From Myxococcota bacterium (GTDB taxonomy: Bacteria > Myxococcota_A > UBA9042 > PHBI01), in NCBI GenBank assembly GCA_046351155.1, contig JAXLYZ010000005.1:43254-107253 (forward strand): a stretch of 64,000 nt of DNA, written 5' to 3'. Shown here one piece after another: positions 38,418 through 52,904 of this stretch (position 1 is its first letter; every line of letters begins with the position of its first letter). A program made the position numbers and the translations under genes. The notes below the pieces were generated by a model. That model did not search any database. It saw only the letters and a list, made by a program, of their open reading frames with translations, and had not been told where the DNA came from.

Positions 38418-39407
38418 ATGACCAAGCACGACCAGGGCCTCGACGCCGAGGTCACCCCAGCTTCGACCTACTTCAACCGCCGCGCGCTCATGCGCGGCGG
38501 CCTCGTCGCCGCGACCGCGGTCGGCAGCGGCCTCCTCTATAGAGCGCTGAACGGCGTGTCGACCGAGGCCGTCGAGACCAAGAAGCTGGCCGGCCTGACC
38601 GTCCCCGCCCCCGGCGCCGCGCCGGCCGCCGCGGCCGCCGGCTTCCGCACCGACGAGCCGATGACGTCGCTGGCCGACATCACCCACTACAACAACTTCT
38701 ACGAGTTCTCGACCAACAAGGACGGCGTCGCCGGCAAGGCCGCCGGCTTCTCGACCGCGGGCTGGAAGCTGGCGGTGGGCGGCCTGGTCAAGAAGCCGCG
38801 CGTCTTTGACCTGGCGGATGTCCTGGCCATCGCGCCGCCCGAGGAGCGCGTCTATCGCATGCGCTGCGTCGAGGCCTGGTCGATGGTCATCCCCTGGGCC
38901 GGCTTCCCGCTCTCGAAGCTCATCGACCAGGTCGAGCCGCTGGGCAGCGCCAAGTACGTGGCCTTCGAGACGCTGCTCGACCCGACGCGCATGCCCGGCC
39001 AGGAGACCGACGTGCTCGACTGGCCCTACGTCGAAGGCCTGCGCCTCGACGAGGCCATGCACCCGCTGACGCTGCTCGCGAGCGGCCTCTACGGCCGCGA
39101 GCTGCCGCCGCAGGACGGCGCGCCGCTGCGCCTCGTGGTGCCGTGGAAGTACGGCTTCAAGGGCATCAAGTCGATCGTGAAGATGACGCTCGTGGCCGAG
39201 CAGCCGCCGACCAGCTGGAGCCGCTACGCGCCGAGCGAGTACGGCTTCTTCGCCAACGTGAACCCCGAGGTGGCGCACCCGCGCTGGAGCCAGGCCACCG
39301 AGCAGCGCATCGGCGAGTCGGGGCGCCGGAAGACGCTGCCGTTCAACGGCTACGCCGAGCAGGTCGCGGGCCTCTACGCCGGGATGGATCTCCGTGCCAA
39401 CTTCTGA
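38418..39407 (+). CDS. msrP: Protein-methionine-sulfoxide reductase catalytic subunit (Mo-molybdopterin)
   Basis: Tat signal [17 protein letters not shown]. YedY-family blocks are present ([48 protein letters not shown]). Confidence 0.85.
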
Positions 39408-41211
39408 CCTCACCTCCGCCGCTCCGGCGACGCTCGCCCGGCCCGCCGCGCGCCGCTTCGCCATCGACCTGCCGCTGGCCAAGACGCTGGTCGTCGTCAA
39501 CGGCCTCGTGCCGATGGCGCTGCTCGTGTGGGACGCGCTCCACCACGAGCTCGGCGCCAACGACGTCAACTTCGCCATCCGCACGACCGGCCTGGTCGGC
39601 CTGGTCATGCTGATGCTGTCGCTGGCGGTGACGCCGCTCCGTCGCATCACCGGCTGGAACGTGATCATCGGCGTGCGGCGCGCGCTGGGCCTGCTGGCGT
39701 TCTTCTATCTGGCCAGCCATTTTGTCATATTCTTCGTCTTCGACCGCGCCGGCTCGCTCTCGAGCACCATCGACGAGATCCTGACGCGCACCTACCTCCA
39801 GATCGGCACCATCGCGCTCGTGCTCATGTCGGCGCTGGCGCTGACCTCGACCGACAAGATGGTGCAGCGCCTGGGCGCCAAGCGCTGGAAGCTCCTGCAC
39901 CGCCTGGCCTACCCCATCGCCATCCTGGCGGTCATCCACTTCCTCCTGCTGGTGAAGTCCGACATCCGCGCGCCGCGCGCCTTCGCCATCGTGCTGGGCG
40001 TGCTGCTGGTCTATCGAGTCGTGCGCCACTACCTCGACCTGCGCCAGCGCGCGCACGCGCCGCGCGCCGCCCCGGCGACGGCCTCGGCGAACGCCGCGCG
40101 GGCCGCTGCGGCGGCGGCCCGCCAGCGCCGCTTCTGGTCGGGCGAGCTGCGCGTCGCACGCGTCTTCCAGGAGACGCACGACGTGAAGACGTTCCGCCTG
40201 GTGTCGCCCGACGGCGGCCCCCTGCCCTTCGACTACCGCCCCGGGCAATATCTCAATATCAAGCTCGATATCAGCGGTCGCCGCGTCAATCGCTCCTACA
40301 CCATCGCCTCGTCGCCGAGCCGCGGCCAGCACTGCGAGCTCAGCGTGAAGCGCGCCAAGGACGGCTACGCCTCGCACTTCCTGCACGACGCCGTGCGCGA
40401 GGGCGACCTCGTCAAGGTCTCGGCGCCGGCCGGCCGCTTCGTCTTCGATGGCGCCAGCGCCGAGCGCGCGCCGTCGGAGCGCGTGCTGCTCGTGGCCGGC
40501 GGCGTCGGCATCACGCCGCTCATGTCGATGGTACGCTGGCTCACCGATCGCGCCTGGCCCGGCGACATCTATTTGGCAATATCAGTGCGCACGCGCGCCG
40601 ACATCATCTTCCAGGACGAGCTGGCCTACCTCGAGCGCCGCTTCCCCAACCTGCACGTGGTCGTCACGCTGAGCCAGCCCGACGCCGACTGGGCCGGCGC
40701 GCGCGGCCACGTCTCGGCCGCGCTCCTGGCCGGCCTGGTGCCCGACCTCGGACGCCGGCGCACGCCCGTCTTCCTGTGCGGCCCCGAGCCGATGATGCTG
40801 GCCGTGCGCGCGCTGCTCGGCACGCTCGGCGTCGCGCCCGAGGACGTCGCCACCGAGGAGTTCGTCTCGCCGCCGGCCGGCGCCGAGGCGGCCGTCGACG
40901 CCGCGCCCATCGCGAGCGACGCCGGCCCGGCCGACGACGACGCGAGCGCGACCGCGACGGTGGCCTTCGCGCGCTCGGCGGTGACGACCGAGGTCGAGGC
41001 GCCGACGACCTTGCTCGAGGCCGCCGAGAGCTGCGGCGTGAGCATCCCCTTCGAGTGCCGCTCGGGCATCTGCGGCCAGTGCAAGACGCGCCTCACCGCC
41101 GGCCGCGTGGTGATGGAGGTGCAGGACGCGCTGTCCGCCGTCGACCGCCAGCGTGGCCTGGTGCTCGCCTGCCAGGCGCGCCCGCGCGGGCCGGTCACGC
41201 TCGACGCCTGA
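39394..41211 (+). CDS. msrQ: MsrQ-like heme-binding membrane subunit fused to FNR-type FAD/NAD-binding and 2Fe-2S ferredoxin domains
   Basis: The N-terminus has a 6-TM ferric-reductase-like domain with conserved His residues (LHHELG, ASHF, LHRLAY, IHFLL). The FNR-like region has [20 protein letters not shown] and VFLCGPEPM. The C-terminus has the cluster [10 protein letters not shown]...LACQ. It overlaps the msrP stop by 14 nt. Confidence 0.75.
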
Positions 41212-41289
41212 GGCGTTCCGGGGCTGGTACGGGCGCCTCGACGAGCGGGCGCCGCTCATCGCGTCGGCAACGGCTCGTTCGTCGCCGCC

Positions 41290-41538
41290 ATGGCGCTCCG
41301 CGCCGCCGACGTGGCCGCGCGCATCCCGTCCATCCCGGCGGCCGATCCGGCGCGCGGCTGGATCGTCGCCGTACCGAACTGGCACGCCTTCGTGCTGGCG
41401 CCGGCCGGCGCCGACGACGCCGACCAGGCGTGGGCCGGCGAGCTGCGGCCCGTGGTGGCGCGCCTCTTCGACTACGTCGACAGCGTCAGCCCGGACCTCT
41501 TCCGCGTGCGCGGCGAGGCGTGGACGCGCATGTCCTAG
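41290..41538 (+). CDS. Small hypothetical protein (82 aa)
   Basis: Protein-like composition. The conserved 16-mer CGCCCTGAATTTGTCA lies 23 nt 3-prime of its stop, as it does after the AAA ATPase gene. It may start earlier at CTG or GTG. Confidence 0.25.
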   Translation: MALRAADVAARIPSIPAADPARGWIVAVPNWHAFVLAPAGADDADQAWAGELRPVVARLFDYVDSVSPDLFRVRGEAWTRMS

Positions 41539-41548
41539 CGAGGCTGCG

Positions 41549-43008
41549 TCACTTCAGGAGCGCCCTGAATTTGTCAATCTCCATGGACGGCGCGATCACC
41601 GTGAGGTGGGTGCCGTCCTCTTCGTGCTTCTCGCCGAGCACGCGCATGCTGGCCCGCACCTGTCCGGTGAGCTGGCCGCGCGCGTAGGGGATGACCAGCG
41701 TGGCGGTCTCGAACTCGGCCTCGAAGAAGGCGATGATGGTGTCGCGGAGGCGGGCCACGTCGGCCGGATCGTGGGCCGAGAGCTGGATGGCGTCGGGCCA
41801 CTCGACGGCCAGCATCTCGCGCTGCTCGGGCGCGACGCGGTCGACCTTGTTCAAGAGGATGCGGCTCGGGATGTCGTCGGCGCCGATCTCGGTGAGCACC
41901 GTCTTCGTCACCCGGAGCTGGTCCCGGAAGCTCGGGTCGGAGCTGTCGACCACGAACAGGAGCAGCGAGGCCTCGAGCGCCTCGTCGAGCGTCGAGCGGA
42001 ACGACGCCACCAGGTCGTGGGGCAGCTTCTTGATGAAGCCGACCGTGTCCGACACGAGGATGCGCGGCAGCACCTCGGGCTGGAGCGCGCGCACGGTGGT
42101 GCCGAGCGTCGCGAACAGCTTGTCCTCGACCAGCACCTCGCTGCCCGTCAGCGCGCGCATGAGCGACGACTTGCCGGCGTTGGTGTAGCCGACCAGCGCC
42201 ACGCGCCGCACGCCCTGGCGCCGCTGGCGGCGGTTCTCCTCGTCGCGCGCGATGGCGACGAGCTCGGCGCGCAGCTCGGCGATGCGGTCGCGCACCTTGC
42301 GGCGGTCGAGCTCGAGCGCCGACTCGCCGGCGCCCTTGCCGGCGCCGACGCCGCCGCGCTGGCGTTCGGTGCCGCGCACGCCGGCGCGGAGCCGCGGCAC
42401 GACGTAGGCGAGGCGCGCGATCTCGACCTGCAGGCGCGCCTCGCGCGTGTTGGCGTGGCGGTGGAAGATCTCGACGATGACGCCGGTGCGGTCGAGCACC
42501 TCGGCGTCGGTCGCCTTCTCGAGGTTGCGCGCCTGGCGCGGGCTGATCTCGTGGTCGACCACCACCACGTCGGCGCGCGGATAGGCGCCGTCGGGGTGCG
42601 GCGGGGCCTGGGCGATGGCCGCGCCGTCGGGCGCCGCGGCGGCGGCTGCGCCGTCCTCGTCCGCGTCGGGCTCGGCGGCCTCGGCGGCGTCGCTCGCGCC
42701 CTCGGCGTCGTCGCCGTCGTCGTCCTCGTCGTCGCCCTTGGCCTTCTTCTTCCCGGTCGGCACGTAGGTCGGCACGACGCCGCTGCCGCCGGTGTAGGCG
42801 GCCAGCTCCATGAGCTTGCCCGAGCCGAAGATGGCGGCGGTGCTGAGGCTCTTCCGCTTCTGGGTGACGGCGCCGACGACCTTCAGGCCGAGCGTCTCGA
42901 TGAGGCGCGTGAGCTCGGCGATGTCGCCGGCGTGGGCGGCGTCGTCGACGTCGGGGAGCTGGACGGCGGCGATGACAGCGGTCTTTTTCGGTGTCTCGGT
43001 CGAGTGCA
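41549..43008 (-). CDS. hflX: GTPase HflX
   Basis: G1 GYTNAGKSS, G3 DTVGF and G4 NKVD, plus HflX N-terminal-domain blocks. The start MHSTETPKK is at 43008. It contains an acidic low-complexity insertion (DDEDDDGDDAEGASDAAEAAEPDADEDG). Confidence 0.85.
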
Positions 43009-43232
43009 TCGGGCGCGAGCGTATGCCCCGAGCCGGCCCGGACCACAAGCGCCATGTCGCGGGCGTGACCGCGCGGGGCCGCGTCATTGGCCGCGGCCGT
43101 GGAATCAGGTAAGAAATCCTCCGCGGGTTTTTCGGATCGCCGAGGCAGTGGTGTCGGTGGCCGCGAACCTCGGGCAAGGCGCCCGACGCCGCCCGACCCT
43201 GCCCCGAACCCGACCGTACCCCGGAGAACTCG

Positions 43233-44228
43233 ATGCGCGCTCACCTCGTCCTGCTCTGCTCACTGCCGCTCGCAGCCGCGTGCGACGGCGCCTCCAACTC
43301 GAGCCCCGGCCAGACCCGGGCGAGCCTCCAGCCCGGCGCCGACTGCGGCGCCGACTTCGACGCCTGCCTCGCGTCGGGCAGCGACCCGCTCGCCTGCAAG
43401 CTGGCCTTCATCGACTGCACCGGCGAGGGCGCCGCCCCCGACTCGAGCGGCGCCCCCGACGGCGACAAGCCCGACCCCGTCGACCCCAACGGCAACCCGA
43501 CGCCCGGCGACGGCTCGGCCGCCGACCCGTGGGACCAGTGCAAGGCCGACTTCCTGGCCTGCGCCGGCCAGGGCTACGACCTCGCGCTGTGCCTCGAGAA
43601 GGTGCGCTGGTGCGCCGGCGTGTGCGGGCCCGAGGCCGGCGGCGGCGGCCAGCCCGGCGACCCGTGCGCCCCGAAGCTCGACGCGTGCCTCGCCTCGGGC
43701 GGCGAGCCGACGGCCTGCAAGGACGACTACATGGCCTGCGTCGAGTCGATCGGTGGAACGGGCAGCGGGACGGGCGACCCGGGCCAGCCGTCGGAGGATC
43801 CGTGCATGCCGATCTACGACGACTGCGTGAAGGCCGGCGGCGACCCGGTCGCGTGCAAGGAGCGCTACAGCGAGTGCTGGGGCCAGCTGCCGAGCGACCC
43901 GGTCGACCCCGGCCAGCCGGCGCCCGACGCCTGCAGCGCCGACCTCGATAGCTGCCTCGCCTCGGGCTACGACCCGACCGCGTGCAAGGAGAAGTTCGAG
44001 GCCTGCCTCGGCGGCAGCGCCGGCGGCTACGACCCCAACGGCAACCCCGACGGCTCGAAGCCCGACGACGGCGCCGGCGCCGACGGCTCGACGACCGACC
44101 CTGCCACCGGCTCGCCCTGCGAGGACGGCTTCCAGGCCTGCCTGCGCGCCACCCCCGACGGCTCGGCCCTGCCGGCCTGCGTGGCGGCGCTCGAGGCGTG
44201 TAAGACGGCGTTCGACGCGACGCGCTGA
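43233..44228 (+). CDS. Lipoprotein with five about-40-aa Cys modules (DxCLASGxDPxACKxx[FY]xxC)
   Basis: Lipobox LAAAC. The repeats include DFDACLASGSDPLACKLAFIDC, LDACLASGGEPTACKDDYMAC, YDDCVKAGGDPVACKERYSEC and LDSCLASGYDPTACKEKFEAC. Confidence 0.6.
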   Translation: MRAHLVLLCSLPLAAACDGASNSSPGQTRASLQPGADCGADFDACLASGSDPLACKLAFIDCTGEGAAPDSSGAPDGDKPDPVDPNGNPTPGDGSAADPWDQCKADFLACAGQGYDLALCLEKVRWCAGVCGPEAGGGGQPGDPCAPKLDACLASGGEPTACKDDYMACVESIGGTGSGTGDPGQPSEDPCMPIYDDCVKAGGDPVACKERYSECWGQLPSDPVDPGQPAPDACSADLDSCLASGYDPTACKEKFEACLGGSAGGYDPNGNPDGSKPDDGAGADGSTTDPATGSPCEDGFQACLRATPDGSALPACVAALEACKTAFDATR

Positions 44229-44234
44229 AGTCGC

Positions 44235-44756
44235 TTGGGCGTCACCCCCGAGGATCGCGGCGAGGTCCCCGAGCTCGATCTCGAGGACCTCTACCGCCGC
44301 TTCGCGCCGCAGGTGCTGCGGCGCGGGCGCTACTTCCTCGGCCCGTCGGAGGCCGAGGAGCTGGTCCACGAGGTGTTCGTGCGCGCGCTCGAGCAGAAGG
44401 ACCGCTTCCGTGGCGAGAGCTCGCCCGCGACGTGGCTCTTCCGCATCGCCACCCACCTGTGTCTCAACCGCCTGCGCGACCGGAAGCGCCAGGCGGCGCT
44501 GCTGGTCCGCCACGGCCCGACCGTGTGGGCGCAGAGCGATCCCGGGAGCTCTCCCGAAGCGCGCGCGTTCCTGAGCTCACTGTGGCGTACCCTCGACGAG
44601 GAGCTCGCTATGATCGGTACCCTCTATTACGTCGACGGCCTCACCACCGCCGACATCGGCGAGATGCTCGAGGTCTCGGATCGCACCATCGCCAATCGCC
44701 TGAAGACCCTCACCGAGCTGGCCCGCCGCCACGCCGGCGTGGAGGACGGGGCGTGA
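44235..44756 (+). CDS. ECF (sigma-70 family) RNA polymerase sigma factor
   Basis: Region 2 (LVHEVFVRALEQKDRFRGESSPATWLFRIATHLCLNRLRDRKR) and region 4 HTH (LYYVDGLTTADIGEMLEVSDRTIANRL). The track start is TTG 44235. Confidence 0.8.
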   Translation: MGVTPEDRGEVPELDLEDLYRRFAPQVLRRGRYFLGPSEAEELVHEVFVRALEQKDRFRGESSPATWLFRIATHLCLNRLRDRKRQAALLVRHGPTVWAQSDPGSSPEARAFLSSLWRTLDEELAMIGTLYYVDGLTTADIGEMLEVSDRTIANRLKTLTELARRHAGVEDGA

Positions 44757-45664
44757 GCACGCGGCCCCCGCAGGCGTCCCAGGCGTCGGACGCCGCATCG
44801 GACGCCCCGCCCCGCGGCCTCGACCGCGGCGGCCACCTGTCCGAGCTGGCGTTCGACCGCCTGCGCTCCGACCGGCCCGGCAGCCACGACGCCTTCCGCG
44901 CCGGCGCGCTCGCGCATCTGGCCGAGTGCGCGCGCTGCCAGGCGGCGCAGGCCGCGCTGGCCGCCGCCGACGCCGAGGTCGGCCTGCGCCCGCCGGCCGC
45001 GCCGATGCGCTCGACGCCGACGGCGACGCCGACGCCGATCGCCCAGGCCCGCGCCGCGCGCGTGCGCCGCGCCCTGACCCTGGGAGCGCCGCTGGCGGCC
45101 GCCGCGCTCGCGCTGGTCATCGCCCTGCCGAGCGGCCAGGCGCCGGTCGGCCCCGGCCCCGGCGTCCCGCCCGACGCCGACCTCGACGCCGGCGACCACA
45201 TCATCCTGAAGAGCGGCGCCCTCGACTTCGAGGTCTACATCCACGACGGCACGGCCAGCCGCCTGGTGCAGAGCGGCGCCGAGGTCCACCCGGGCGACCG
45301 CGCCAGCTTCCGCGTCAACCTGCGCGCGCCCGGCTACCTCCTGGTCGTCGGCTCCGACGAGGCCGGCCACACCTACCTGTGCTGGCCGCAGGACGGCGTC
45401 GTCGCGGCCGACAGCGCCGAGGCCGTGGCCATCGGCCCGACCGCCGCGCCCGAGCAGCTCGAGGCCGCCATGCGCTTCGACGACGTGCTCGGCGACGAGC
45501 ACCTGGTGGCGGTCTTCTGCCCCGGCCGCTTCGCCTACCCCGACGTCGCCACGCGTGAGCTGGTCGGTCGCGATGAGGCATTGCTCGCCCGTTTCCGGCA
45601 GACTCACGCCGACTGCACCATCCGGGCGGTCGTGCTCCACAAGGTGTCGGGGGCCAAGCCATGA
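44753..45664 (+). CDS. Anti-sigma factor (zinc-binding ZAS-type, single TM)
   Basis: GTG overlaps the sigma stop (GTGA). Motif HLAECARCQAAQ (HxxxCxxC). TM segment LTLGAPLAAAALALVIAL, then a periplasmic domain. Confidence 0.65.
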   Translation: MSTRPPQASQASDAASDAPPRGLDRGGHLSELAFDRLRSDRPGSHDAFRAGALAHLAECARCQAAQAALAAADAEVGLRPPAAPMRSTPTATPTPIAQARAARVRRALTLGAPLAAAALALVIALPSGQAPVGPGPGVPPDADLDAGDHIILKSGALDFEVYIHDGTASRLVQSGAEVHPGDRASFRVNLRAPGYLLVVGSDEAGHTYLCWPQDGVVAADSAEAVAIGPTAAPEQLEAAMRFDDVLGDEHLVAVFCPGRFAYPDVATRELVGRDEALLARFRQTHADCTIRAVVLHKVSGAKP

Positions 45665-47253
45665 GCGCGCGCGGATCGATGGGTGTGGTCGGGCTGGCGT
45701 GCGCGCTGTGGCTCATCGGCGTCGGCGCGAGCGGCACGGCCCACGCCGGCGAGCGCTTCGCCATCGTCATCGGCGCCAACGTCGGCGAAGCCGACGAGCC
45801 GCGCCTGTCCTTCGCCGAGCGCGACGCGCAGAAGATGGCCGAGGTGCTGACGCGGCTCGGCGGCGTCGACTCCGAGGACCTCATCCTCCTGCTCTCGCCC
45901 GACGCCGGCGACGTGCGCCGCTCGCTGGCCGCGCTGAAGGGCCGCATCCAGGCGCCCATGCCACCGGGCGGCGAGAGCGGCGGGCCGGTGCTGTTCATCT
46001 ATTATAGTGGGCATGCCGACGGCCAGGCGCTCCACCTCCGCGGCACCGAGCTGCCGTTCGCCGACCTGAAGGCGGCCGTGCGCGCCATCGGCGCCGACAT
46101 GAGCGTGTTCCTGGTCGACGCCTGCCGCTCGGGCGGCCTCGTGCGCCTGAAGGGCGCGGTGCCGGCCGAGCGCTTCCGGATCGACGCGCAGGACGAGCTC
46201 TCGAGCGAAGGCCTGGCCATCATCACCAGCTCGGCCGAGAGCGAGGACGCGCAGGAGTCCGAGCGGCTGGGCGGCGGCGTCTTCACCCACCACCTCGTGA
46301 CCGGCCTCCTCGGCGCCGCCGACGCCTCGGGCGACGCGCGCGTGACGCTGTCCGAGGCCTATCGCTATGCCTACGTGCAGACGCTCAGCGCCACATCCAC
46401 AACCGCGGTTGTGCAACACCCGACCTTCGCCTTCGACATGCAGGGCCAGCGCGAGCTGGTGCTGACCCACATGGGCGGCGACACCGGCCAGGGCCTGCTC
46501 GAGCTGGTCGCGGCCGGCCACTACGTCGTCTTCGAGCGCTTCGGCGCGCGCGAGGTGGCGGCCGAGCTCGACGCGCGCCCCGAGACCGAGCTGGTGCTGC
46601 CGCCCGGGCCCTACCTCGTGCGGCGGCGCGAGACGGCGCGCGTCTTCGAGACCGAGCGCGCGGTGGTGGCTGGCGCGGTCACCAAGGTCGCCGACGGCGA
46701 CTTCGTGCAGGTGCCGTATCGGCACGCGGTGCGGAAGGGCTACGGCCAGGCCGAGCGGCGCGCCCTGTCGTTGGGCGCCGACCTCGAGGTGGCCGGCGCG
46801 CTGCTACCGTCGACCGACCCGTTCGTGCTCGGCGCCGTCACCGGCCAGCTCGACTTCGCCGACCTGGCGCTGCGGCTCCGCTTCCGCTACGGCCGGAGCG
46901 GCGGCGAGAACGCGCACGTGAGCCTGAGCCAGGGCCTCATGGGCCTCGACGTCGGGCTCTACAAGCTCTTCGACATCGGCCGCCACGGCGTCGGCTTCGG
47001 CCTCCGCGGCGGCGTCGACTGGCTGTCGCAGTCGTTCGACAGCGAGGGTCGCGCGCCCGCCAAGAACCAGGTGCTCGGGCGCTTCGGGCCGTTCCTGCGC
47101 GTGGAGCTCGCGCTGTCGGGCTCGGTCACGCTGCAGATCGACGTCGGCGACGAGCTCTACTTCCTCGATGTGGCGCACGGCGCCGGCGCGAGCCGGACCG
47201 AGACGCGCGCCGCGCCGACGGCCTCCCTCGGCTTCGGAGTGCTCCTGCCATGA
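45661..47253 (+). CDS. Secreted caspase-like (peptidase C14) protein with a C-terminal beta-rich domain
   Basis: Signal peptide. Caspase His/Cys dyad context: FAIVIGAN, YYSGHADG (His) and VFLVDACRSGG (Cys). The C-terminal about 200 aa is beta-strand-like with alternating hydrophobics. ATGA overlap with the anti-sigma stop. Confidence 0.7.
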   Translation: MSARGSMGVVGLACALWLIGVGASGTAHAGERFAIVIGANVGEADEPRLSFAERDAQKMAEVLTRLGGVDSEDLILLLSPDAGDVRRSLAALKGRIQAPMPPGGESGGPVLFIYYSGHADGQALHLRGTELPFADLKAAVRAIGADMSVFLVDACRSGGLVRLKGAVPAERFRIDAQDELSSEGLAIITSSAESEDAQESERLGGGVFTHHLVTGLLGAADASGDARVTLSEAYRYAYVQTLSATSTTAVVQHPTFAFDMQGQRELVLTHMGGDTGQGLLELVAAGHYVVFERFGAREVAAELDARPETELVLPPGPYLVRRRETARVFETERAVVAGAVTKVADGDFVQVPYRHAVRKGYGQAERRALSLGADLEVAGALLPSTDPFVLGAVTGQLDFADLALRLRFRYGRSGGENAHVSLSQGLMGLDVGLYKLFDIGRHGVGFGLRGGVDWLSQSFDSEGRAPAKNQVLGRFGPFLRVELALSGSVTLQIDVGDELYFLDVAHGAGASRTETRAAPTASLGFGVLLP

Positions 47254-48263
47254 GCGACCGCGCAATCCATCGCATCGCCGTGGCGACGCTCGGCCTCGCG
47301 GCCGGCCTGGCATGCGGCGTCGCGGCCTGCGGCGACGCGGTCGTCGACGGCACCTGGCCGGGCGAGGCGCTGTTCCAGCTCGAGGGCTGGGTCGAGCTCG
47401 AGGCCGGCACCTCGACGCTGCTCGGCGACGGCCATCGCGACCAGGGCGAGCTGCGCGTCGGCATCTTCTGGACGCCCACCAAGGGCACCGACTTCCAGCT
47501 CGAGACCGCCGTCGAGCAGGAGGTGTCGACGGCCGGCACGTTCCCGGCGCGCTTCACCGTGACGCTCTACGAGCCGCCGCCCGACTCGCTGCTGCACGCG
47601 GTCGCCGACGGCAGCGGCCAGGTGGCGCAGGCGCTGCTCTTGGCCTACCTCGACCAGGATGGCGACGGCCAGTGGGACCGCGCCAGCGAGATCCTGGTCG
47701 GCGGCGCCGCCCAGCGCGTCATCCTCTACACCCCCGACGGCATCGTCAGCGACGCGCTCGGCACGCTCGGCCCGGGCTTCCATCGCGTGGTGCCGACCGG
47801 CGTCTGCGACAGCGGCGCCGGCGCGCGCTTCGCCGCCGACACCGAGGCCGACATCGACCTGACCGTGAGCATGGCATTTCCCGTCGACGCGCTGCTGGAT
47901 GTCAATTGCGACGGCAAGAAGGACGAGTGGTCGGGCGTCTGTCCGCCGCTCGAGAACGTGCGCCTGCGCTGCGGCGATCCCGCGGTGGAGCCCGTCATGT
48001 GCGCCTCGTGCACGGCCTACCTGTGGACGCCGGGCTCGGACGTGGCGGCCTGCGACCAGTGGTTTGACAAATGCCTGTCCGTCTATTTCGCACCGAATGA
48101 GTGCGAGTCGGAATGGCATATCTGCCGCGGCGAGCCGGTCAGCGTCGATCCCAGCTGCGGCGACCTCGCCTGCCAGTGCAAGGGCGTCTACACGGACTGC
48201 CTGGCCAGCGGCTACGCCGAGGACGTCTGCCGGCCGAAGTACGACAGCTGCGTCGGCCAGTGA
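47250..48263 (+). CDS. Lipoprotein; the C-terminus carries the same Cys module as the 43233-44228 lipoprotein
   Basis: Lipobox LAAGLACG. The C-terminus reads CGDLACQCKGVYTDCLASGYAEDVCRPKYDSC. ATGA overlap with the caspase-like gene stop. Confidence 0.6.
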   Translation: MSDRAIHRIAVATLGLAAGLACGVAACGDAVVDGTWPGEALFQLEGWVELEAGTSTLLGDGHRDQGELRVGIFWTPTKGTDFQLETAVEQEVSTAGTFPARFTVTLYEPPPDSLLHAVADGSGQVAQALLLAYLDQDGDGQWDRASEILVGGAAQRVILYTPDGIVSDALGTLGPGFHRVVPTGVCDSGAGARFAADTEADIDLTVSMAFPVDALLDVNCDGKKDEWSGVCPPLENVRLRCGDPAVEPVMCASCTAYLWTPGSDVAACDQWFDKCLSVYFAPNECESEWHICRGEPVSVDPSCGDLACQCKGVYTDCLASGYAEDVCRPKYDSCVGQ

Positions 48264-48275
48264 TCGGGCCGGCGC

Positions 48276-49442
48276 TCACAGGACCGGCGCGTCGGCGACG
48301 AAGCCCTTCCAGCGGCGCAGGTACTGGACGAAGGTCGGGCTGACGTCGGCCGCGCCGAGCTCGGCCGCGGTCATCGGCGGGCGCCGCGGCAGCCAGCCCG
48401 GCGTCGCGGCGAGGCGCGGCCACTCGGGGTTGAGGATGGCGGCGCGACCGAGGGCGACCGGCGCGCTCCCGACCGGTCCACCGACCGAGCCGACCCAGCT
48501 CGCGACCTCGTCGGGCGTCCAGAACTGACCCGCCGCGACCATCGGCACGTCCGCCGGGACGGCCGCGCGCACGCGCCGATACGGGTTCTCGTCCGGGTAC
48601 TTGCGCGACGGCAGGCGGTGGTCCCAGAGCGACAGGTGGAGGAAGTCGATGCCGTCCTCGACGAGGTCGCGCGCGACGATGGCCGTCTCGTCGAGGTCGA
48701 GGCCGGTGATGGCGCCGTAGTTCTCGGGCGAGAGTCGCACGCCGACCAGGAACGGCGGCGGCACCGCCTGGCGGATGGCGCGCACCACCTCGCGCAGGAG
48801 GCGCGCGCGGCCCTCGAGCGAGCCGCCCCAGCGATCGTCTCGCGCCGGCGCGACCGCCGACAGGAACTGGCACAAGAGGTAGCCGTGCGCGCCGTGCACC
48901 TCGATGCCGTCGAAGCCGGCCGCGTGCGCGCGCAGCGCGGCGGCGCGGAAGTCGTCGATGACGCGCGCCAGGTCCTCCTCGCTGCCGGCGCGCGCGGGCT
49001 CCATGCCGGCGCCCGCGGTGGTCACCGCCGTGGCGCTCCACGGCTCGAGGCCCGACACCGCGCGCGCGGCGCGAGCGCCGCCGTGGAAGAGCTGCACCAG
49101 GCCGAGCGCGCCGCGCGAGCGCAGGCCGGCCGCCAGCTCGGCCAGGCGCGGCACGCACGCGTCGCGGTCGATGCCGAGCTCGCCCGGCCAGGCCTTGCCG
49201 TCCTGCGCCACGTAGGCGGCGCAGGTCTCGACGACGCCGAAGCCGCCCTCGGCGCGGCGCAGGAGCCAGCGCTCCTCGGCGCTCGACAGCGTGCCGTCGG
49301 GCTCGCTCTGCAGGTTGGTGAGCGGCGCGAGCCAGAGCCCGTTGCGCGCTTCGGTGCCGCGCGGGAAGCGCATCGGCCGCAGGACGTCGTCGATCGTCAC
49401 AGCGTGGCTAATCGGCTCATCTGACATGGCTTCGCTCCGCAC
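48276..49442 (-). CDS. NADH:flavin oxidoreductase, Old Yellow Enzyme family
   Basis: OYE signatures FDGIEVHGAHGYLLCQFLS, plus GGSLEGRARL and a TIM-barrel length. Confidence 0.8.
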   Translation of the reverse strand: MRSEAMSDEPISHAVTIDDVLRPMRFPRGTEARNGLWLAPLTNLQSEPDGTLSSAEERWLLRRAEGGFGVVETCAAYVAQDGKAWPGELGIDRDACVPRLAELAAGLRSRGALGLVQLFHGGARAARAVSGLEPWSATAVTTAGAGMEPARAGSEEDLARVIDDFRAAALRAHAAGFDGIEVHGAHGYLLCQFLSAVAPARDDRWGGSLEGRARLLREVVRAIRQAVPPPFLVGVRLSPENYGAITGLDLDETAIVARDLVEDGIDFLHLSLWDHRLPSRKYPDENPYRRVRAAVPADVPMVAAGQFWTPDEVASWVGSVGGPVGSAPVALGRAAILNPEWPRLAATPGWLPRRPPMTAAELGAADVSPTFVQYLRRWKGFVADAPVL

Positions 49443-49472
49443 GGGTCGCCCGGGTCGGCCACCCGGCTCCGC

Positions 49473-49796
49473 TCAGGTGACGGGCACCGGTGCCGCGCGC
49501 AGGATGTCCATGCCGGCCATGATCGGGCTCATCGCGTCCCAGATGGCGGTGACCTCGGCGTTCTCGCCAGCGCGGTCGAGCGCGGTCGCGTCGGTCCAGG
49601 TGAACACCTCGAAGAAGGTCGTGCCGCCGTTGGCGTCGAGCGCGCGCCAGACCTGCGCGGTCTTGGCGGTGGCCATGCCGAGGCGGTGGAGCGTCGGCCA
49701 GTTCTTCTGGATGAGCGCCTCGGCGGCGTCCTCCTGCCCGGGCTGAGGACGATACATGACGAGCACGTCGAGGGTGCCGCTCGGATTCGAAGCCAT
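49473..49796 (-). CDS. Small ABM/Dabb-like protein (putative antibiotic-biosynthesis-monooxygenase fold)
   Basis: 107 aa with an alpha+beta-like pattern. This is a weak call from size and pattern only. Confidence 0.35.
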   Translation of the reverse strand: MASNPSGTLDVLVMYRPQPGQEDAAEALIQKNWPTLHRLGMATAKTAQVWRALDANGGTTFFEVFTWTDATALDRAGENAEVTAIWDAMSPIMAGMDILRAAPVPVT

Positions 49797-49922
49797 GAGA
49801 ACCTCCGGCCGCCATGATGGACACGCCGAGGCGTTCGCACCAGCCGCCGTGGTTCAAATCGGAGAACGAACGCCCGCGGCGCCGCCGACCGACGATACTG
49901 CCGCTGGTCGATCGGAGGACCC

Positions 49923-51311
49923 ATGACGACGCGCCACCTCGCCCTCACCGCCCTCGCCCTCATCGCCGCCTGCGGCGACTCGGCCCCCGACGCGACCGCG
50001 ACCATCGACGCCACCGCGACCCCGGACGCCCTCGCCGACGCGACCGCGACCGCCGACGCGACCGCGACCCCCGACGCCATCGCCGACACGACCGCGGTCG
50101 ACAGCGCGGACGCGGACACCAGCGACGACCGCACCATCTTCCCCGGCCTCTACCGCATGGACGGCCTCGACCCGACGCTGCCCGACGACGACCTCGCGCC
50201 GCTCTGGGACCTCGTGCTCGACGCCGACGTCGTCGGCCTCGGCGAGAGCGTCCACACGTCCGGCGGCTTCTACGCGACGAAGGAGCGCCTCGTGCGCGAC
50301 CTCGTCCTCGGCCACGGCGTGCGCGTCCTGGCCATGGAGACGCCGCACACCGCCGCGACCTGGCTCGACCGCTACCTCCAGGAAGGCCCGTGCGACGCCG
50401 ATCCGGTGGCGGTCTTCGGCCCGCCGCACTACCCCATCTTCGGCGTCTTCGTCGACGACCACACGGCCGCCCTCTTCCGCTGGCTGTGCGAGTGGAACGC
50501 CGCCCACGGCGACGACCGCGTGCGCTTCTTCGGCTTCGACGCGCAGCAGCCGAGTGACGACCTCGACGCCTTCGCCGCCTTCCTCGACGCCCACGCCGCC
50601 GATCGCAAGGAGGCGGCCATGGCCTCGCTGGCGCCGTGCAACTCCGTCTATGGCGAGGCCTACCCGGCCGAGGACTTCGCGGCCTGCAACGCCGCCATCG
50701 ACGCGCTCGAGGCCGATCTCGCCGCGAGCGTCGAGGCGCAGGTGCCGGCCCACGACTGGGCCGAGCTGGCGATCGACCTCCGCTCGTTCCGCTCGTGGCA
50801 GGGCCAGGCCTTCTACGACGTGATCGACGTCCGCCGTTCGTGGGAGTCGCGCGACGTCGCCATGGCCGACATCTTCGAGGCGCGCGCCGCCCTCGACTTC
50901 CCCGGCCAGCGCATCGCCCTCTGGGCCCACAACTACCACCTCGCCGCCGACCACCCGCACATCGCGAAGACCAACTTCGTGGCCAACGCCCGGACCCTCG
51001 GCTCCGAGCTGCGCCTGCGCCGCGGTCGCGCCTATCGCCCGGTGGCCATCACCGCCTACCACCCCGGCATCAACTGGCCCGGCGTCAGCACCGGCGACGG
51101 CTCGACCGAGCAGGGCCAGGGCGACGGCGACATCGAGCAGGCCTTCTTCGACGACACCGACGCCGACCAGCTCATCTACGATCCGCGCTCGGAGTGGGCG
51201 CCGCCCGAGGCCGAGTGGTTCCTCTCCGAGGAGAAGATGATCATGCGCGACAACTTCGACGCCATCGTGTGGCTGCGCGCCTCGCCGCCCATGCACGCCG
51301 TCCTCTGGTGA
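49923..51311 (+). CDS. Erythromycin esterase (EreA/EreB) family lipoprotein
   Basis: RBS GGAGGAC. Lipobox LIAACG. Ere-family block VVGLGESVHTSGGFY. The N-terminus has an (ATAT-DA)n low-complexity repeat. Confidence 0.7.
   Translation: MTTRHLALTALALIAACGDSAPDATATIDATATPDALADATATADATATPDAIADTTAVDSADADTSDDRTIFPGLYRMDGLDPTLPDDDLAPLWDLVLDADVVGLGESVHTSGGFYATKERLVRDLVLGHGVRVLAMETPHTAATWLDRYLQEGPCDADPVAVFGPPHYPIFGVFVDDHTAALFRWLCEWNAAHGDDRVRFFGFDAQQPSDDLDAFAAFLDAHAADRKEAAMASLAPCNSVYGEAYPAEDFAACNAAIDALEADLAASVEAQVPAHDWAELAIDLRSFRSWQGQAFYDVIDVRRSWESRDVAMADIFEARAALDFPGQRIALWAHNYHLAADHPHIAKTNFVANARTLGSELRLRRGRAYRPVAITAYHPGINWPGVSTGDGSTEQGQGDGDIEQAFFDDTDADQLIYDPRSEWAPPEAEWFLSEEKMIMRDNFDAIVWLRASPPMHAVLW
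49975..50100. repeat. Coding tandem repeat GCGACCGCGACC... (ATATxDA)n
   Basis: Visible periodic repeat in the esterase N-terminal linker. Confidence 0.5.
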
Positions 51312-51413
51312 CCCGCTCGGGCGCGCCCGCGCGCCCCCACGTCGCGCATCGCGCGCGCGCTTTCGCTTTCGCCGACCGAGCGCCGTTCCACGAGGGCCAG
51401 TCCGGAGGTCCTC

Positions 51414-52904
51414 ATGGTCCGTCACCACGCCCCTGCCCCCATGCCCGCGCCCGCCACCCGCCCGCGCGAGCCGCGCTCGGGCGCGCCCGCGGGGGCTCCG
51501 GCCGCGGTCCCCGGCTTCGCCAGCGGTCCCGCGGGCGGCGGCCTGCGCGCCGCCTCCGAGGCCGCCGCGCGCAGCATCCAGGACGCCGGCGCCGAGGCCG
51601 CGACGGCGCGACTCGGACGCGAGCGCGTGCTGGCGATGATCTACGACCCGGCGCTCCTGTCGCAGCGCTTCCGCCTCGTGAGCGACCTCGCCGACGCCGA
51701 TCGAGCCGCCACCCAGCGCGACGCGACCAGCCGGCAGCAGTCGAACGCGATCCAGGCGGTCGTCCTCGGCGAGGCGCTGACGCTGTCGCGCGCCGACCTG
51801 CCCGGCCTCATCCGCGAGGCCGAGCGGCTGCCCGAGGGTCCCGACCCCGAACCGCCGGCCCCGCTCGGGCGCGGCCGCTCGGCCAACCAGGCGCTGCCGG
51901 TCGATCTCGGCGCGCTGCGCCTGAGCTTCACGCTGCCGGGCAGCACCATCATCAACCACTCGCGCGAGGCCGACCTGCTGACGACCGCCGAGACCCAGGT
52001 CTACCTGACGGTGTCGACGACCGGCATCGAGCTCCGCATGGAGCCGCCCATCGAGGTCAACCCGCGCTCGGCCACGCACGACGGCATCGGCGGCCTGCTC
52101 CGCGGCGCCGCGCCCGACTTCGACCTGTCGACGGTCTACTACGACTTCACCAGCGGGACCTTGCGCGTGGCCGGCGACGGCATGCTGCGCGAGCGCGTGC
52201 AGGCGGCCCTGGCGGCGGTCGTCATGCCGGCGCTGGCGGGCACGCCGCTGCGCAGGCCGGGCTACAATCCGGCCGAGGACCCGAACCTGCTGGCGACGCT
52301 CGAGCAGGTGCAGGCCAACTTCGCGCGCCTGCCGCACACCTCGGAGACGCGCGTCGGCGCGGCCGACGTGCGGCGCCCGTCGCTGGGCGCGACCTTCTCG
52401 CTGCGCGACCCGGTCGCGGCCGGCAGCGACCGGGCCGGCGTGCGCATCGCGGGCGGCACGGCCGTCAGCGTGTCGCTCCAGCTCGGCGGCAGCGCCGCCG
52501 AGATCGGCGGCGAGGCGAGCGCCCAGGCGATGGCCAACCACGTCGAGCGCGTGAGCCTCACCAGCGAGGGCATCACGCTCATGGTCGGCGGCTCGCCGGC
52601 GGCGCGCATCGAGGCCCTCGAGGTGAGCGGCGGCCAGGTCCGCGTGACGCGCGTGACCATGCTCGGCGACGCGCGCGCGGTGGGCTTCCTCATCTCGTAC
52701 TTCGGCAGCGCCGTGCAGGGCGCGCCACCGCAGCTCGCCGGCGCCATCGCCGAGCGCGATGGCGACGAGACCATCGCCGGCATCACCCGCGCCACCCTGA
52801 GCGGCCTCCTCACCGAGGCCGCGCGCGGCCTCGTCGGGCAAGCCCGCGGCGCGATCCCGGGCGTCGACCTGGGCGAGGTCTTCCACCTGGCGCCGGCCCG
52901 CTGA
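51414..52904 (+). CDS. Hypothetical protein (496 aa)
   Basis: RBS CCGGAGGT precedes the ATG. Protein-like sequence. The huge overlapping antisense ORF (49854-52886) is Arg/Gly noise. Confidence 0.5.
   Translation: MVRHHAPAPMPAPATRPREPRSGAPAGAPAAVPGFASGPAGGGLRAASEAAARSIQDAGAEAATARLGRERVLAMIYDPALLSQRFRLVSDLADADRAATQRDATSRQQSNAIQAVVLGEALTLSRADLPGLIREAERLPEGPDPEPPAPLGRGRSANQALPVDLGALRLSFTLPGSTIINHSREADLLTTAETQVYLTVSTTGIELRMEPPIEVNPRSATHDGIGGLLRGAAPDFDLSTVYYDFTSGTLRVAGDGMLRERVQAALAAVVMPALAGTPLRRPGYNPAEDPNLLATLEQVQANFARLPHTSETRVGAADVRRPSLGATFSLRDPVAAGSDRAGVRIAGGTAVSVSLQLGGSAAEIGGEASAQAMANHVERVSLTSEGITLMVGGSPAARIEALEVSGGQVRVTRVTMLGDARAVGFLISYFGSAVQGAPPQLAGAIAERDGDETIAGITRATLSGLLTEAARGLVGQARGAIPGVDLGEVFHLAPAR

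Follow-up and report, generated by a model that had tools for sequence, protein, structure and literature searches.

A Myxococcota operon joining an ECF sigma/anti-sigma pair to a putative outer-membrane-anchored metacaspase and Cys-module lipoproteins

The operon and its conserved core

The window analysed here is a stretch of 64,000 nucleotides from a Myxococcota bacterium (assembly GCA_046351155.1, contig JAXLYZ010000005.1, positions 43,254 to 107,253). At 43233-48263 of this window, in DNA of about 74% G+C, five plus strand open reading frames (ORFs) encode a sigma factor of the extracytoplasmic function (ECF) type, an anti-sigma factor of the zinc anti-sigma (ZAS) type and a caspase-like protein, flanked by two lipoproteins. 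The genes, named g1 to g5, and the candidate promoter in front of them are as follows (aa, amino acids):

43130..43155, + strand: candidate ECF-type promoter TTTCG-N16-GTGTC, 78-103 bp 5' of the g1 ATG
43233..44228, + strand: g1, lipoprotein, signal LAAAC, 331 aa
44235..44756, + strand: g2, ECF (group 4) sigma factor, 173 aa, TTG start
44753..45664, + strand: g3, single-pass class I (ZAS-type) anti-sigma factor with a periplasmic DUF4384-like domain, 303 aa
45661..47253, + strand: g4, signal peptide, metacaspase-like C14 domain, beta-sandwich and predicted 8-stranded barrel, 530 aa
47250..48263, + strand: g5, lipoprotein (VAAC-G), beta-sandwich and Cys-rich helical tail, 337 aa

The preliminary description of this DNA had proposed five co-directional, closely spaced genes with a short gap between the first two and three overlaps between the others, and all of this was recovered in the sequence. 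The g1 ORF stops at 44228, the first start codon of the sigma ORF is the TTG at 44235, and the overlapping start and stop codons GTGA (44753), ATGA (45661) and ATGA (47250) couple g2 to g5 translationally. The region is a genuine five-gene operon, which recurs in dozens of related metagenome and genome sequences.

The sigma factor assignment made in that description also holds. The g2 protein matches Sigma70_r2 (9e-17), Sigma70_r4_2 (1.8e-6) and TIGR02937 (2e-19, 69.8 bits against a cut-off of 42.9); it consists of the sigma2 and sigma4 regions only, which places it in the ECF group (group 4), and its nearest solved structures are SigW and RpoE.

Relatives of the caspase-like protein are numerous (more than 584 at E<=0.001, of which the best 120 listed are near full-length matches). 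Most come from metagenome-assembled genomes (MAGs) of Myxococcota and Bradymonadia, and the window protein is itself annotated as belonging to a Myxococcota MAG. Scanning metagenomes with the caspase alignment gave 416 confirmed loci, of which 80 were fetched; a contig search with the lone caspase sequence gave only three distant loci, among them L001. The comparison set comprises 86 related loci, all collected via caspase searches, and hidden Markov models built from six known cassettes were run on the six-frame ORFs of every locus. Linkage was counted in the 53 loci with at least 1.7 kb of upstream sequence and, for genes on either side, in the 35 loci with enough flank on both.

The anti-sigma gene lies directly 5' of the caspase gene in all 53 loci, and the sigma gene is present in 51 of them. 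A g5-like gene was found in 31 of 35 loci, downstream in 26 and upstream of sigma in five. Five neighbourhoods (L004-L008) show the order sigma, anti-sigma, caspase, g5-like gene amid otherwise unrelated surroundings. The conserved core is thus the sigma/anti-sigma/caspase set with its downstream lipoprotein. Locus L035 departs from this pattern: a lipoprotein (L035:4970-5971) that fuses an acidic linker and Cys modules to a DUF4384-like domain, with RVRG at the start of that domain, stands directly 5' of the genes for a caspase and a g5-like protein, with the sigma gene missing upstream. The Cys module, the DUF4384-like domain and the caspase are therefore linked independently of the sigma factor.

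On several contigs there are two paralogous caspases, and the same MAG (locus-tag prefix U1F43) holds further copies. The paralogue P0044 is absent from the window by a six-frame scan of the 64 kb, and exact look-ups of P0044 and P0012 gave no match. Outside Myxococcota, a low-GC Spirochaetales MAG (L001:8609-10294) has the order sigma, anti-sigma-like gene, caspase; its anti-sigma-like protein has RIKG and no HxxxCxxC, and its caspase ORF is only about 125 aa long. This copy may be decayed or mis-assembled.

In each of the seven closest loci (the window, L009, L010, L012, L013/L038, L014 and L015), the pattern TTCG-N16-GTGT[CG] recurs 70-105 bp 5' of the g1-like gene. A looser form of it had 16 matches in 105 kb of upstream plus strand sequence against 38 in 1174 kb elsewhere, which is an approximately 5-fold enrichment; no sigma-70-type promoter was found in 42900-48600. 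The pattern fits a putative autoregulated ECF promoter serving all five genes, on modest evidence. In L016, the stretch 5' of sigma at the contig start (L016:1-260) is made up of a unit of about 45 bp (…GAGCAGGCGAAGCCGTGGCGAGGCGAGAGCAACCAGAGTTCGCC…) in perfect tandem repetition.

The protease, the anti-sigma factor and their common motif

The structure of g4 was predicted with AlphaFold2 (AF2) from a 60-sequence alignment; the model has a predicted local distance difference test score (pLDDT) of 88.1 and a predicted template modelling score (pTM) of 0.81. The features of g4 are:

45754..46395, + strand: caspase domain, residues 32-245 (AF2 model, Peptidase_C14)
46006-46017, + strand: SGHA with the catalytic His118
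46117-46134, + strand: DACRSG with the catalytic Cys155
46144..46155, + strand: RLKG (R162-x-K164-G165), candidate autoprocessing site in a disordered loop
46417..46689, + strand: middle beta-sandwich, residues 253-343 (AF2 secondary structure)
46729-46740, + strand: V-R-K-G, residues 357-360, short helix between beta-sandwich and barrel
46762..47244, + strand: predicted OmpA-like 8-stranded barrel, residues 368-528 (AF2 model, Foldseek)

The protein begins with a signal peptide whose cleavage site lies between AHA and GE. It matches Peptidase_C14 (PF00656) at 4.6e-8. All 60 of the homologues examined match this family too, and His118, Cys155 and Asp153 are invariant in them. Against the PDB, Foldseek returned the metacaspase Yca1, MALT1, legumain and caspases-6 and -9 at 1e-7 to 1e-4, and the solved proteins nearest by sequence are metacaspases. 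The C14 assignment with an intact His/Cys dyad, which the preliminary description had drawn from the letters of the sequence, is thereby supported at the level of the fold, and the failure of this fold, which that description had named as grounds for withdrawing its proposal, did not occur. The similarity to the EACC1-associated caspase family (NF047832) is of a generic caspase kind (54.1 bits against a cut-off of 140), and this assignment was rejected.

The C-terminal part proved to consist of a beta-sandwich and a predicted 8-stranded outer-membrane barrel of the OmpA/OmpX type. Eight long strands at residues 368-528 form such a barrel in the AF2 model, and Foldseek matched this part to OmpA, OmpX, NspA and Ail, with the OmpA transmembrane domain on top (4.8e-8, template modelling score 0.68 on the target). 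The family PF13505 (OMP_b-brl) matches three of the 60 homologues. The beta-sandwich was considered as a DUF4384-like domain and rejected, as the anti-sigma and caspase profiles proved unrelated in an hhalign comparison. Both termini of OmpA-like barrels face the periplasm, and therefore the caspase domain of g4 should be periplasmic and held at the outer membrane by the modelled barrel rather than released. The earlier view of a secreted protein with a beta-rich C-terminus was thus right as to export and beta content, but not in taking the protein to be simply secreted.

The R162-x-K164-G165 motif lies 7-10 residues past the catalytic Cys, in the only disordered loop of g4 (pLDDT below 50 at residues 164-174). 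K164 and G165 are conserved in 60 of 60 homologues and R162 in 57, and of the 79 distinct caspase ORFs from all loci, 78 have [RK]-x-[KR]-G. In caspases and metacaspases the inter-subunit loop is the place of processing, and we take the g4 loop to correspond to it. The Asp of a D-x-C motif is a hallmark of the Arg/Lys-specific clan-CD enzymes (metacaspases, MALT1), whereas caspases have Gln at this place (Q-A-C). Asp153, two residues before Cys155, agrees with the former and not with the latter, and its invariance makes a cut between Lys and Gly chemically plausible. The second basic motif of g4, V-R-K-G at 357-360, was rejected as a release site: R358 and G360 are invariant, but it forms a confident helix (pLDDT about 92), and K359 is less than 90% conserved.

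The anti-sigma factor g3 has the following features:

44915..44938, + strand: HLAECARC, the HxxxCxxC zinc-anti-sigma motif
45071..45127, + strand: predicted transmembrane helix, at about residues 107-125 (taken from the hydrophobic run ALTLGAPLAAAALALVIAL in the protein sequence)
45203..45214, + strand: ILKS, residues 151-154, at the family R-x-K/R-G position, start of the periplasmic domain
45284..45514, + strand: DUF4384-like core, residues 178-254, followed by the invariant Cys256 and Cys288

It thus combines an N-terminal HLAECARC with a single hydrophobic helix and about 150 aa of periplasmic domain. Among 62 non-redundant homologues from related loci, H55, C59 and C62 never vary, and neither do D243, C256 and C288 of the periplasmic part. 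When 32 family members were scanned singly, 19 matched zf-HC2, and 26 matched DUF4384 (PF14326) at E<=0.1 (best 5.6e-6); the window protein itself reaches E=0.054 and 14 bits against DUF4384, under the gathering cut-off of 27. The family profile finds the anti-sigma domains of ChrR, RsiW, RslA and DdvA in the PDB. These matches bear out the ZAS anti-sigma identification of the preliminary description, and the N-terminal HxxxCxxC places g3 in class I, with zinc and sigma binding as predicted properties.

A motif of the same kind as in the caspase loop is found in the anti-sigma family, between the variable linker after the transmembrane helix and the folded periplasmic domain. It reads R-x-K/R-G, with R in 50, K/R in 61 and G in 61 of the 62 homologues, and its distance to the helix, by a rough hydropathy estimate, has a median of about 15 residues and a range of about 2-33. 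The g3 of the window is the sole member among the 62 with Ser for Gly, and Ile replaces its Arg. Given this ILKS, the window cassette may be regulated differently from its paralogues.

The lipoproteins, the twin-CX6C module and the neighbouring genes

The g1 protein contains 27 Cys among its 331 aa. They are largely arranged in twin-CX6C modules joined by Pro/Asp/Gly-rich linkers, and the same module recurs at the end of g5:

43344-43418, 43539-43613 and 43665-43739, + strand: g1 modules 1-3 (six-frame pattern scan)
43803-43877, 43932-44006 and 44118-44201, + strand: g1 modules 4-6 (six-frame pattern scan)
47646-47681, + strand: conserved YLDxDxDxxWD loop in the g5 beta-sandwich
48051-48125 (residues 268-292) and 48177-48251 (residues 310-334), + strand: g5 modules (pattern scan)

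The core of the module, C-x6-C-x9/12-C-x6-C, spans 25-28 aa inside repeats of about 40-65 aa. Its four Cys are invariant in the module alignment, and a conserved basic residue follows the third (C-K-[ED]-[KR]-[YF]). A shared Cys module had been seen in both lipoproteins before; its conserved core is shorter than the 40 aa then given, and the counts of five in g1 and one at the end of g5 rise to six (the sixth with a 12-residue loop) and two. A six-frame scan of the 64 kb for C-x6-C-x8-12-C-x6-C gave nine matches in g1 and g5, namely the eight modules and one overlapping match that bridges the two of g5. The sole further match lies in an implausible minus strand frame, and as the pattern is otherwise confined to these two genes, the module is not background.

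No NCBIfam family was found for g1 or g5 at E<=1, g1 is without a Pfam match, and a Pfam scan of ten module proteins gave none. Because a word-index search with g1 returned g1 alone, the module was searched as a profile. The profile of the eight window modules found 52 proteins at E<=0.001 among 1.84 billion (1.84e9) representatives, nearly all of them lipoproteins of 150-500 aa with 3-13 modules. So low a number marks the family as rare and specific. Across the caspase-collected loci, the module is almost confined to the gene 5' of sigma and to the C-terminus of g5-like proteins, and the possibility that it is a common myxobacterial motif without specific association, which the preliminary description had left standing against itself, is not borne out.

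Lipoproteins with 6-10 modules lie directly 5' of sigma in L009, L010, L012, L013/L038, L014 and L015, and homologues with 1-3 modules in L005, L022 and L028; all module proteins upstream of sigma have lipoprotein signal peptides. A multi-module lipoprotein was found upstream in about 11 of the 86 loci and is lacking in most cassettes, so that g1 is a clade-specific accessory. In L005:6080-6778 and L028:326-1024, acidic and aromatic repeats (DDGDWNDDGDW..., GYGYGYDWYGYDD...) link the module hairpins. In L008 (2125-4292), two Gly/Ser-rich lipoprotein-like proteins with another Cys repeat (C-x5-C...DxDC type) occupy the place of the twin-CX6C protein 5' of sigma, a hint that an accessory Cys-rich lipoprotein of one kind or another recurs.

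The second lipoprotein, g5, has a Cys27-Gly28 that is invariant among its homologues. Its AF2 model (pLDDT 72) shows a beta-sandwich followed by helix-turn-helix hairpins (helices 265-279/282-292 and 306-319/324-336) that coincide with the two Cys modules. Nothing significant was found for this fold in the PDB, and 11 g5 homologues were without a Pfam match. C-terminal modules are present in the g5 homologues of L004, L007, L009, L010 and L012-L019, and many others are without them. L004:9651-11725 has two tandem g5-like genes after the caspase, of which the second is apparently frame-shifted in its C-terminal half; an extra Cys module lies there in another frame at 11410.

In having two Cys per antiparallel helix at a fixed spacing, the module resembles the twin-CX9C (CHCH) and twin-CX3C proteins, and the modelled geometry would allow two inter-helix disulfides. 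It differs from them in its x6 spacing, in its occurrence in bacterial periplasmic lipoproteins and in its 3-13 tandem copies, and no sequence relationship was detected with Pfam or NCBIfam.

The neighbours of the operon are as follows:

39394-41211, + strand: one polypeptide with a ferric-reductase-like transmembrane domain and FAD-binding, NAD-binding and 2Fe-2S ferredoxin domains
41549-43177, - strand: divergent HflX-type GTPase (GTP-bdg_N/M, MMR_HSR1)
49923-51311, + strand: erythromycin-esterase-family protein with an N-terminus like that of lipoproteins and a stretch of (A/D)-T-A-T-P-D-A repeats
51414-52904: ORF of 496 aa without a match in a Pfam scan

The HflX-type protein carries a long, acidic insert of low complexity (KKKAKGDDEDDDGDDAEG...) in its N-terminal domain. 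This protein probably begins at about 43009 in truth, so that the candidate promoter lies in an intergenic region of 220 bp. On the other side, a convergent Old Yellow Enzyme-type gene ends 13 bp past the end of g5 (48263).

A possible role of the protease in sigma factor release

The linkage of a sigma/anti-sigma pair with an envelope caspase-like protein and Cys-module lipoproteins, as originally described, stands. It had been read as the pair controlling the protease; an action of the protease on the anti-sigma factor is likely to come on top of this. We suggest that the cassette might be a self-contained trans-envelope ECF signalling system in which an outer-membrane-tethered periplasmic metacaspase serves as the dedicated site-1 protease of a DUF4384-type anti-sigma factor, with the lipoproteins as modulators. 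From the sequences and models at hand, we put the probability of this reading at roughly 0.45. What speaks for it is the motif common to both proteins, R-x-K-G, in the disordered loop of the caspase and at the boundary that follows the transmembrane helix of the anti-sigma factor. Gene linkage adds to this, with g2 to g5 translationally coupled, the anti-sigma gene next to the caspase gene in 53 of 53 loci, the sigma gene in 51 of 53, and the triad recurring in the Spirochaetales MAG with its short caspase ORF. So do the caspase fold with its invariant dyad and Asp153, the barrel anchor, the sigma-less L035, the reported fusions of DUF4384 to proteases and orthocaspases, and the precedents of craspase and DdvA. 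The several paralogous cassettes per contig are as expected of signal-specific sensors.

In such a system, the metacaspase-like domain of g4 would hang into the periplasm from its outer-membrane barrel and, judging from its D-A-C motif, would cut after Arg or Lys as metacaspases and MALT1 do. It would first process itself between K164 and G165 of R162-x-K164-G165. On a signal, it would then clip the anti-sigma factor between Lys and Gly of R-x-K-G just outside the inner membrane (the site-1 cut), an RseP-type site-2 protease would complete the cleavage and release the sigma factor, and the freed sigma would re-induce the operon from the TTCG-N16-GTGTC promoter 5' of g1. The lipoproteins would probably gate or sense. 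In this last step, which is the weakest, g5 would regulate the protease or partner with it, and the twin-CX6C modules would be disulfide- or metal-dependent reporters of the periplasmic redox or metal state.

A three-compartment layout is familiar from FecA-FecR-FecI and RseA/DegS/RseP, and regulated proteolysis of the anti-sigma factor is the expected way of release. Like FecA-FecR-FecI, the cassette pairs an outer-membrane barrel bearing a periplasmic domain with an inner-membrane anti-sigma factor and a cytoplasmic ECF sigma factor. However, the barrel is 8-stranded, OmpA-like and bears a protease, unlike the 22-stranded TonB-dependent transducer FecA, and the proposed site-1 protease is an operon-encoded cysteine protease, unlike DegS or Prc.

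Two systems with caspase-clan proteases come closer. DdvA of Myxococcus xanthus is a ZAS anti-sigma factor with a periplasmic TPR-CHAT part, for which self-cleavage before RseP has been proposed (PMC11506125). As in the cassette, its DdvS/DdvA pair has a single-pass zinc-type anti-sigma factor (the g3 family profile matches 8rot_B at 2.8e-5), and a periplasmic clan-CD protease with a His/Cys dyad is present, the site-1 cut of DdvA being itself a proposal (PMC11506125). In DdvA, the CHAT domain is fused in cis to the anti-sigma factor and a TPR array and acts within a dimer, whereas the cassette has a separate outer-membrane-anchored C14 protease and an anti-sigma factor with a small DUF4384-like domain. 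We therefore rejected g3 as a DdvA-type protein, as the periplasmic part of about 150 aa in this 303-aa protein matches DUF4384 only and the protease is a separate gene. DdvS promoters read GTAA-N16-CGT, and the candidate here is TTCG-N16-GTGTC; the window operon has no adjacent defence island.

In craspase, Csx29 (TPR-CHAT) cleaves the RpoE-binding Csx30, and some Csx30 C-terminal domains are DUF4384. This domain has been reported repeatedly in fusion with proteases or orthocaspases and is listed among the accessory domains of orthocaspases. A caspase-clan protease thus cuts a protein that holds an ECF sigma factor, as is proposed here. Craspase, however, is cytoplasmic and RNA-guided via Cas7-11, and for Csx30 nothing is reported there of a membrane-spanning anti-sigma factor with HxxxCxxC, while the cassette is without Cas genes, periplasmic and of the C14 instead of the CHAT type. 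A type III-E craspase module was also rejected on the basis of the neighbours, which have no Cas domains by Pfam in 39394-52904; none was called in L004-L008.

Several points weigh against a site-1 role of g4. The case is built on sequence and models throughout. The protease would be tethered at the outer membrane, and the proposed site lies about 2-33 residues from the inner membrane. The g3 of the window retains only the Lys of the motif, and because R-x-K-G begins the first strand of the folded domain, its conservation may be structural. The promoter motif comes from a few related loci and an enrichment of only about 5-fold. Moreover, operon linkage equally fits a protease that is a mere regulated target.

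This last point leads to the main rival explanation, which is possible, but which we hold to be rather doubtful. Here, the pair would sense through the DUF4384-like domain and switch on the operon, whose caspase and lipoproteins would be the output, the caspase acting as an envelope-remodelling or quality-control protease on other envelope proteins, perhaps g1 and g5. Autoregulated ECF operons often carry their own effectors, the candidate promoter precedes g1 so that all five genes would be co-induced, and the outer-membrane tether sets the protease far from the part of the anti-sigma factor near the inner membrane. Moreover, the basic residue of the module (C-K-[ED]-[KR]-[YF]) could be cut by a Lys/Arg-specific protease if the hairpin unfolds. 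Such a role leaves three things unexplained, however: the adjacency of the anti-sigma and caspase families in 53 of 53 loci, their common R-x-K-G motif, and the sigma-less L035, in which a DUF4384-like domain stands beside the caspase.

We consider it improbable that the operon is an envelope antiviral or developmental-lysis switch whose caspase triggers a defence regulon or lysis. Caspase-clan proteases do appear repeatedly in bacterial immunity (craspase, and DdvA with its control of a CBASS-CRISPR island, CBASS being the cyclic-oligonucleotide-based antiphage signalling system), several paralogues are found per contig, and a 2012 survey speculated that the metacaspases of M. xanthus sigma operons have a part in cell death (PMC3501461). 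Yet no CRISPR, CBASS or toxin genes adjoin the cassette in any locus inspected, and its neighbours vary by locus, those in the window being of a housekeeping kind (HflX, Old Yellow Enzyme-type flavin reductase, erythromycin-esterase-like protein). With PADLOC, g4 gave only a generic caspase model (1.6e-5) next to a weak helix-turn-helix overlap for the sigma factor; no system-specific model matched, and a known anti-phage system was accordingly rejected.

Equally little speaks for metal or thiol homeostasis, in which the Cys-rich lipoproteins would form a sigma-induced metal sponge or redox buffer that the caspase matures or turns over: g1 does present its 27 Cys on helical hairpins, the cytoplasmic ZAS motif could be redox sensitive and myxobacterial ECF sigma factors serve copper, cadmium and zinc responses (CorE2), but a multi-module lipoprotein that is lacking in most cassettes cannot be the core function, many g5 homologues are module-less, and Cys pairs spaced i/i+7 on antiparallel helices in the periplasm are more suggestive of structural disulfides.

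The linkage of sigma factors with metacaspases is not new. Four of the five metacaspases of M. xanthus DK1622 lie in operons with a sigma-70-family factor, and the arrangement also occurs in Anaeromyxobacter, Haliangium, Sorangium, Ralstonia and Fibrobacter (Asplund-Samuelsson et al. 2012, PMC3501461). These operons show the same linkage as the window, and the identity of the M. xanthus proteins with the present family is presumed. That survey gave co-occurrence and a speculation on cell death only, and the anti-sigma factor, the DUF4384-like domain, the barrel, g5, the Cys modules and R-x-K-G were not described. In our literature search, M. xanthus, metacaspase and ECF came together in no paper; caspases go unmentioned in the main text of the ECF classification 2.0 paper, and in a review only CHAT domains are reported near group ECF54. 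The operon type was noticed in 2012 and is without characterisation in the literature searched, while control of ECF pairs by the caspase clan is already known. Of such control only two cases are known, both recent, namely craspase/Csx30/RpoE and DdvA/DdvS, and in the latter the cut is hypothetical.

The cassette described here is common and modular (over 584 homologues of its caspase and 416 metagenome loci confirmed, often with multiple copies per contig), and, as the 2012 survey indicates, sigma-metacaspase operons occur in the genetically tractable M. xanthus. It also brings to light two families without a Pfam or NCBIfam match, one of them the beta-sandwich lipoprotein g5 and the other the hairpin repeat of the twin-CX6C type. 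Should the anti-sigma factor indeed be cut by the protease, the long-noted sigma-metacaspase operons of myxobacteria would be explained, DUF4384 would gain a function as a caspase-addressed module, and a simple two-protein system would be at hand to study the activation and specificity of a bacterial metacaspase.

A wider speculation, to which we would give less than even odds, is that the cassette might be a widespread periplasmic counterpart of the craspase/DdvA logic. A single R-x-K-G motif, cut between Lys and Gly, would then serve both self-maturation and the cut of the anti-sigma factor, the system, its protease and substrate being tethered to opposite membranes, could act as a sensor of envelope spacing or integrity, and the twin-CX6C lipoproteins would add redox or metal gating. 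Should this be true, caspase-clan proteolysis would be a general and ancient way of releasing ECF sigma factors, of which DdvA would be the fused form and Csx29/Csx30 the form captured by CRISPR.

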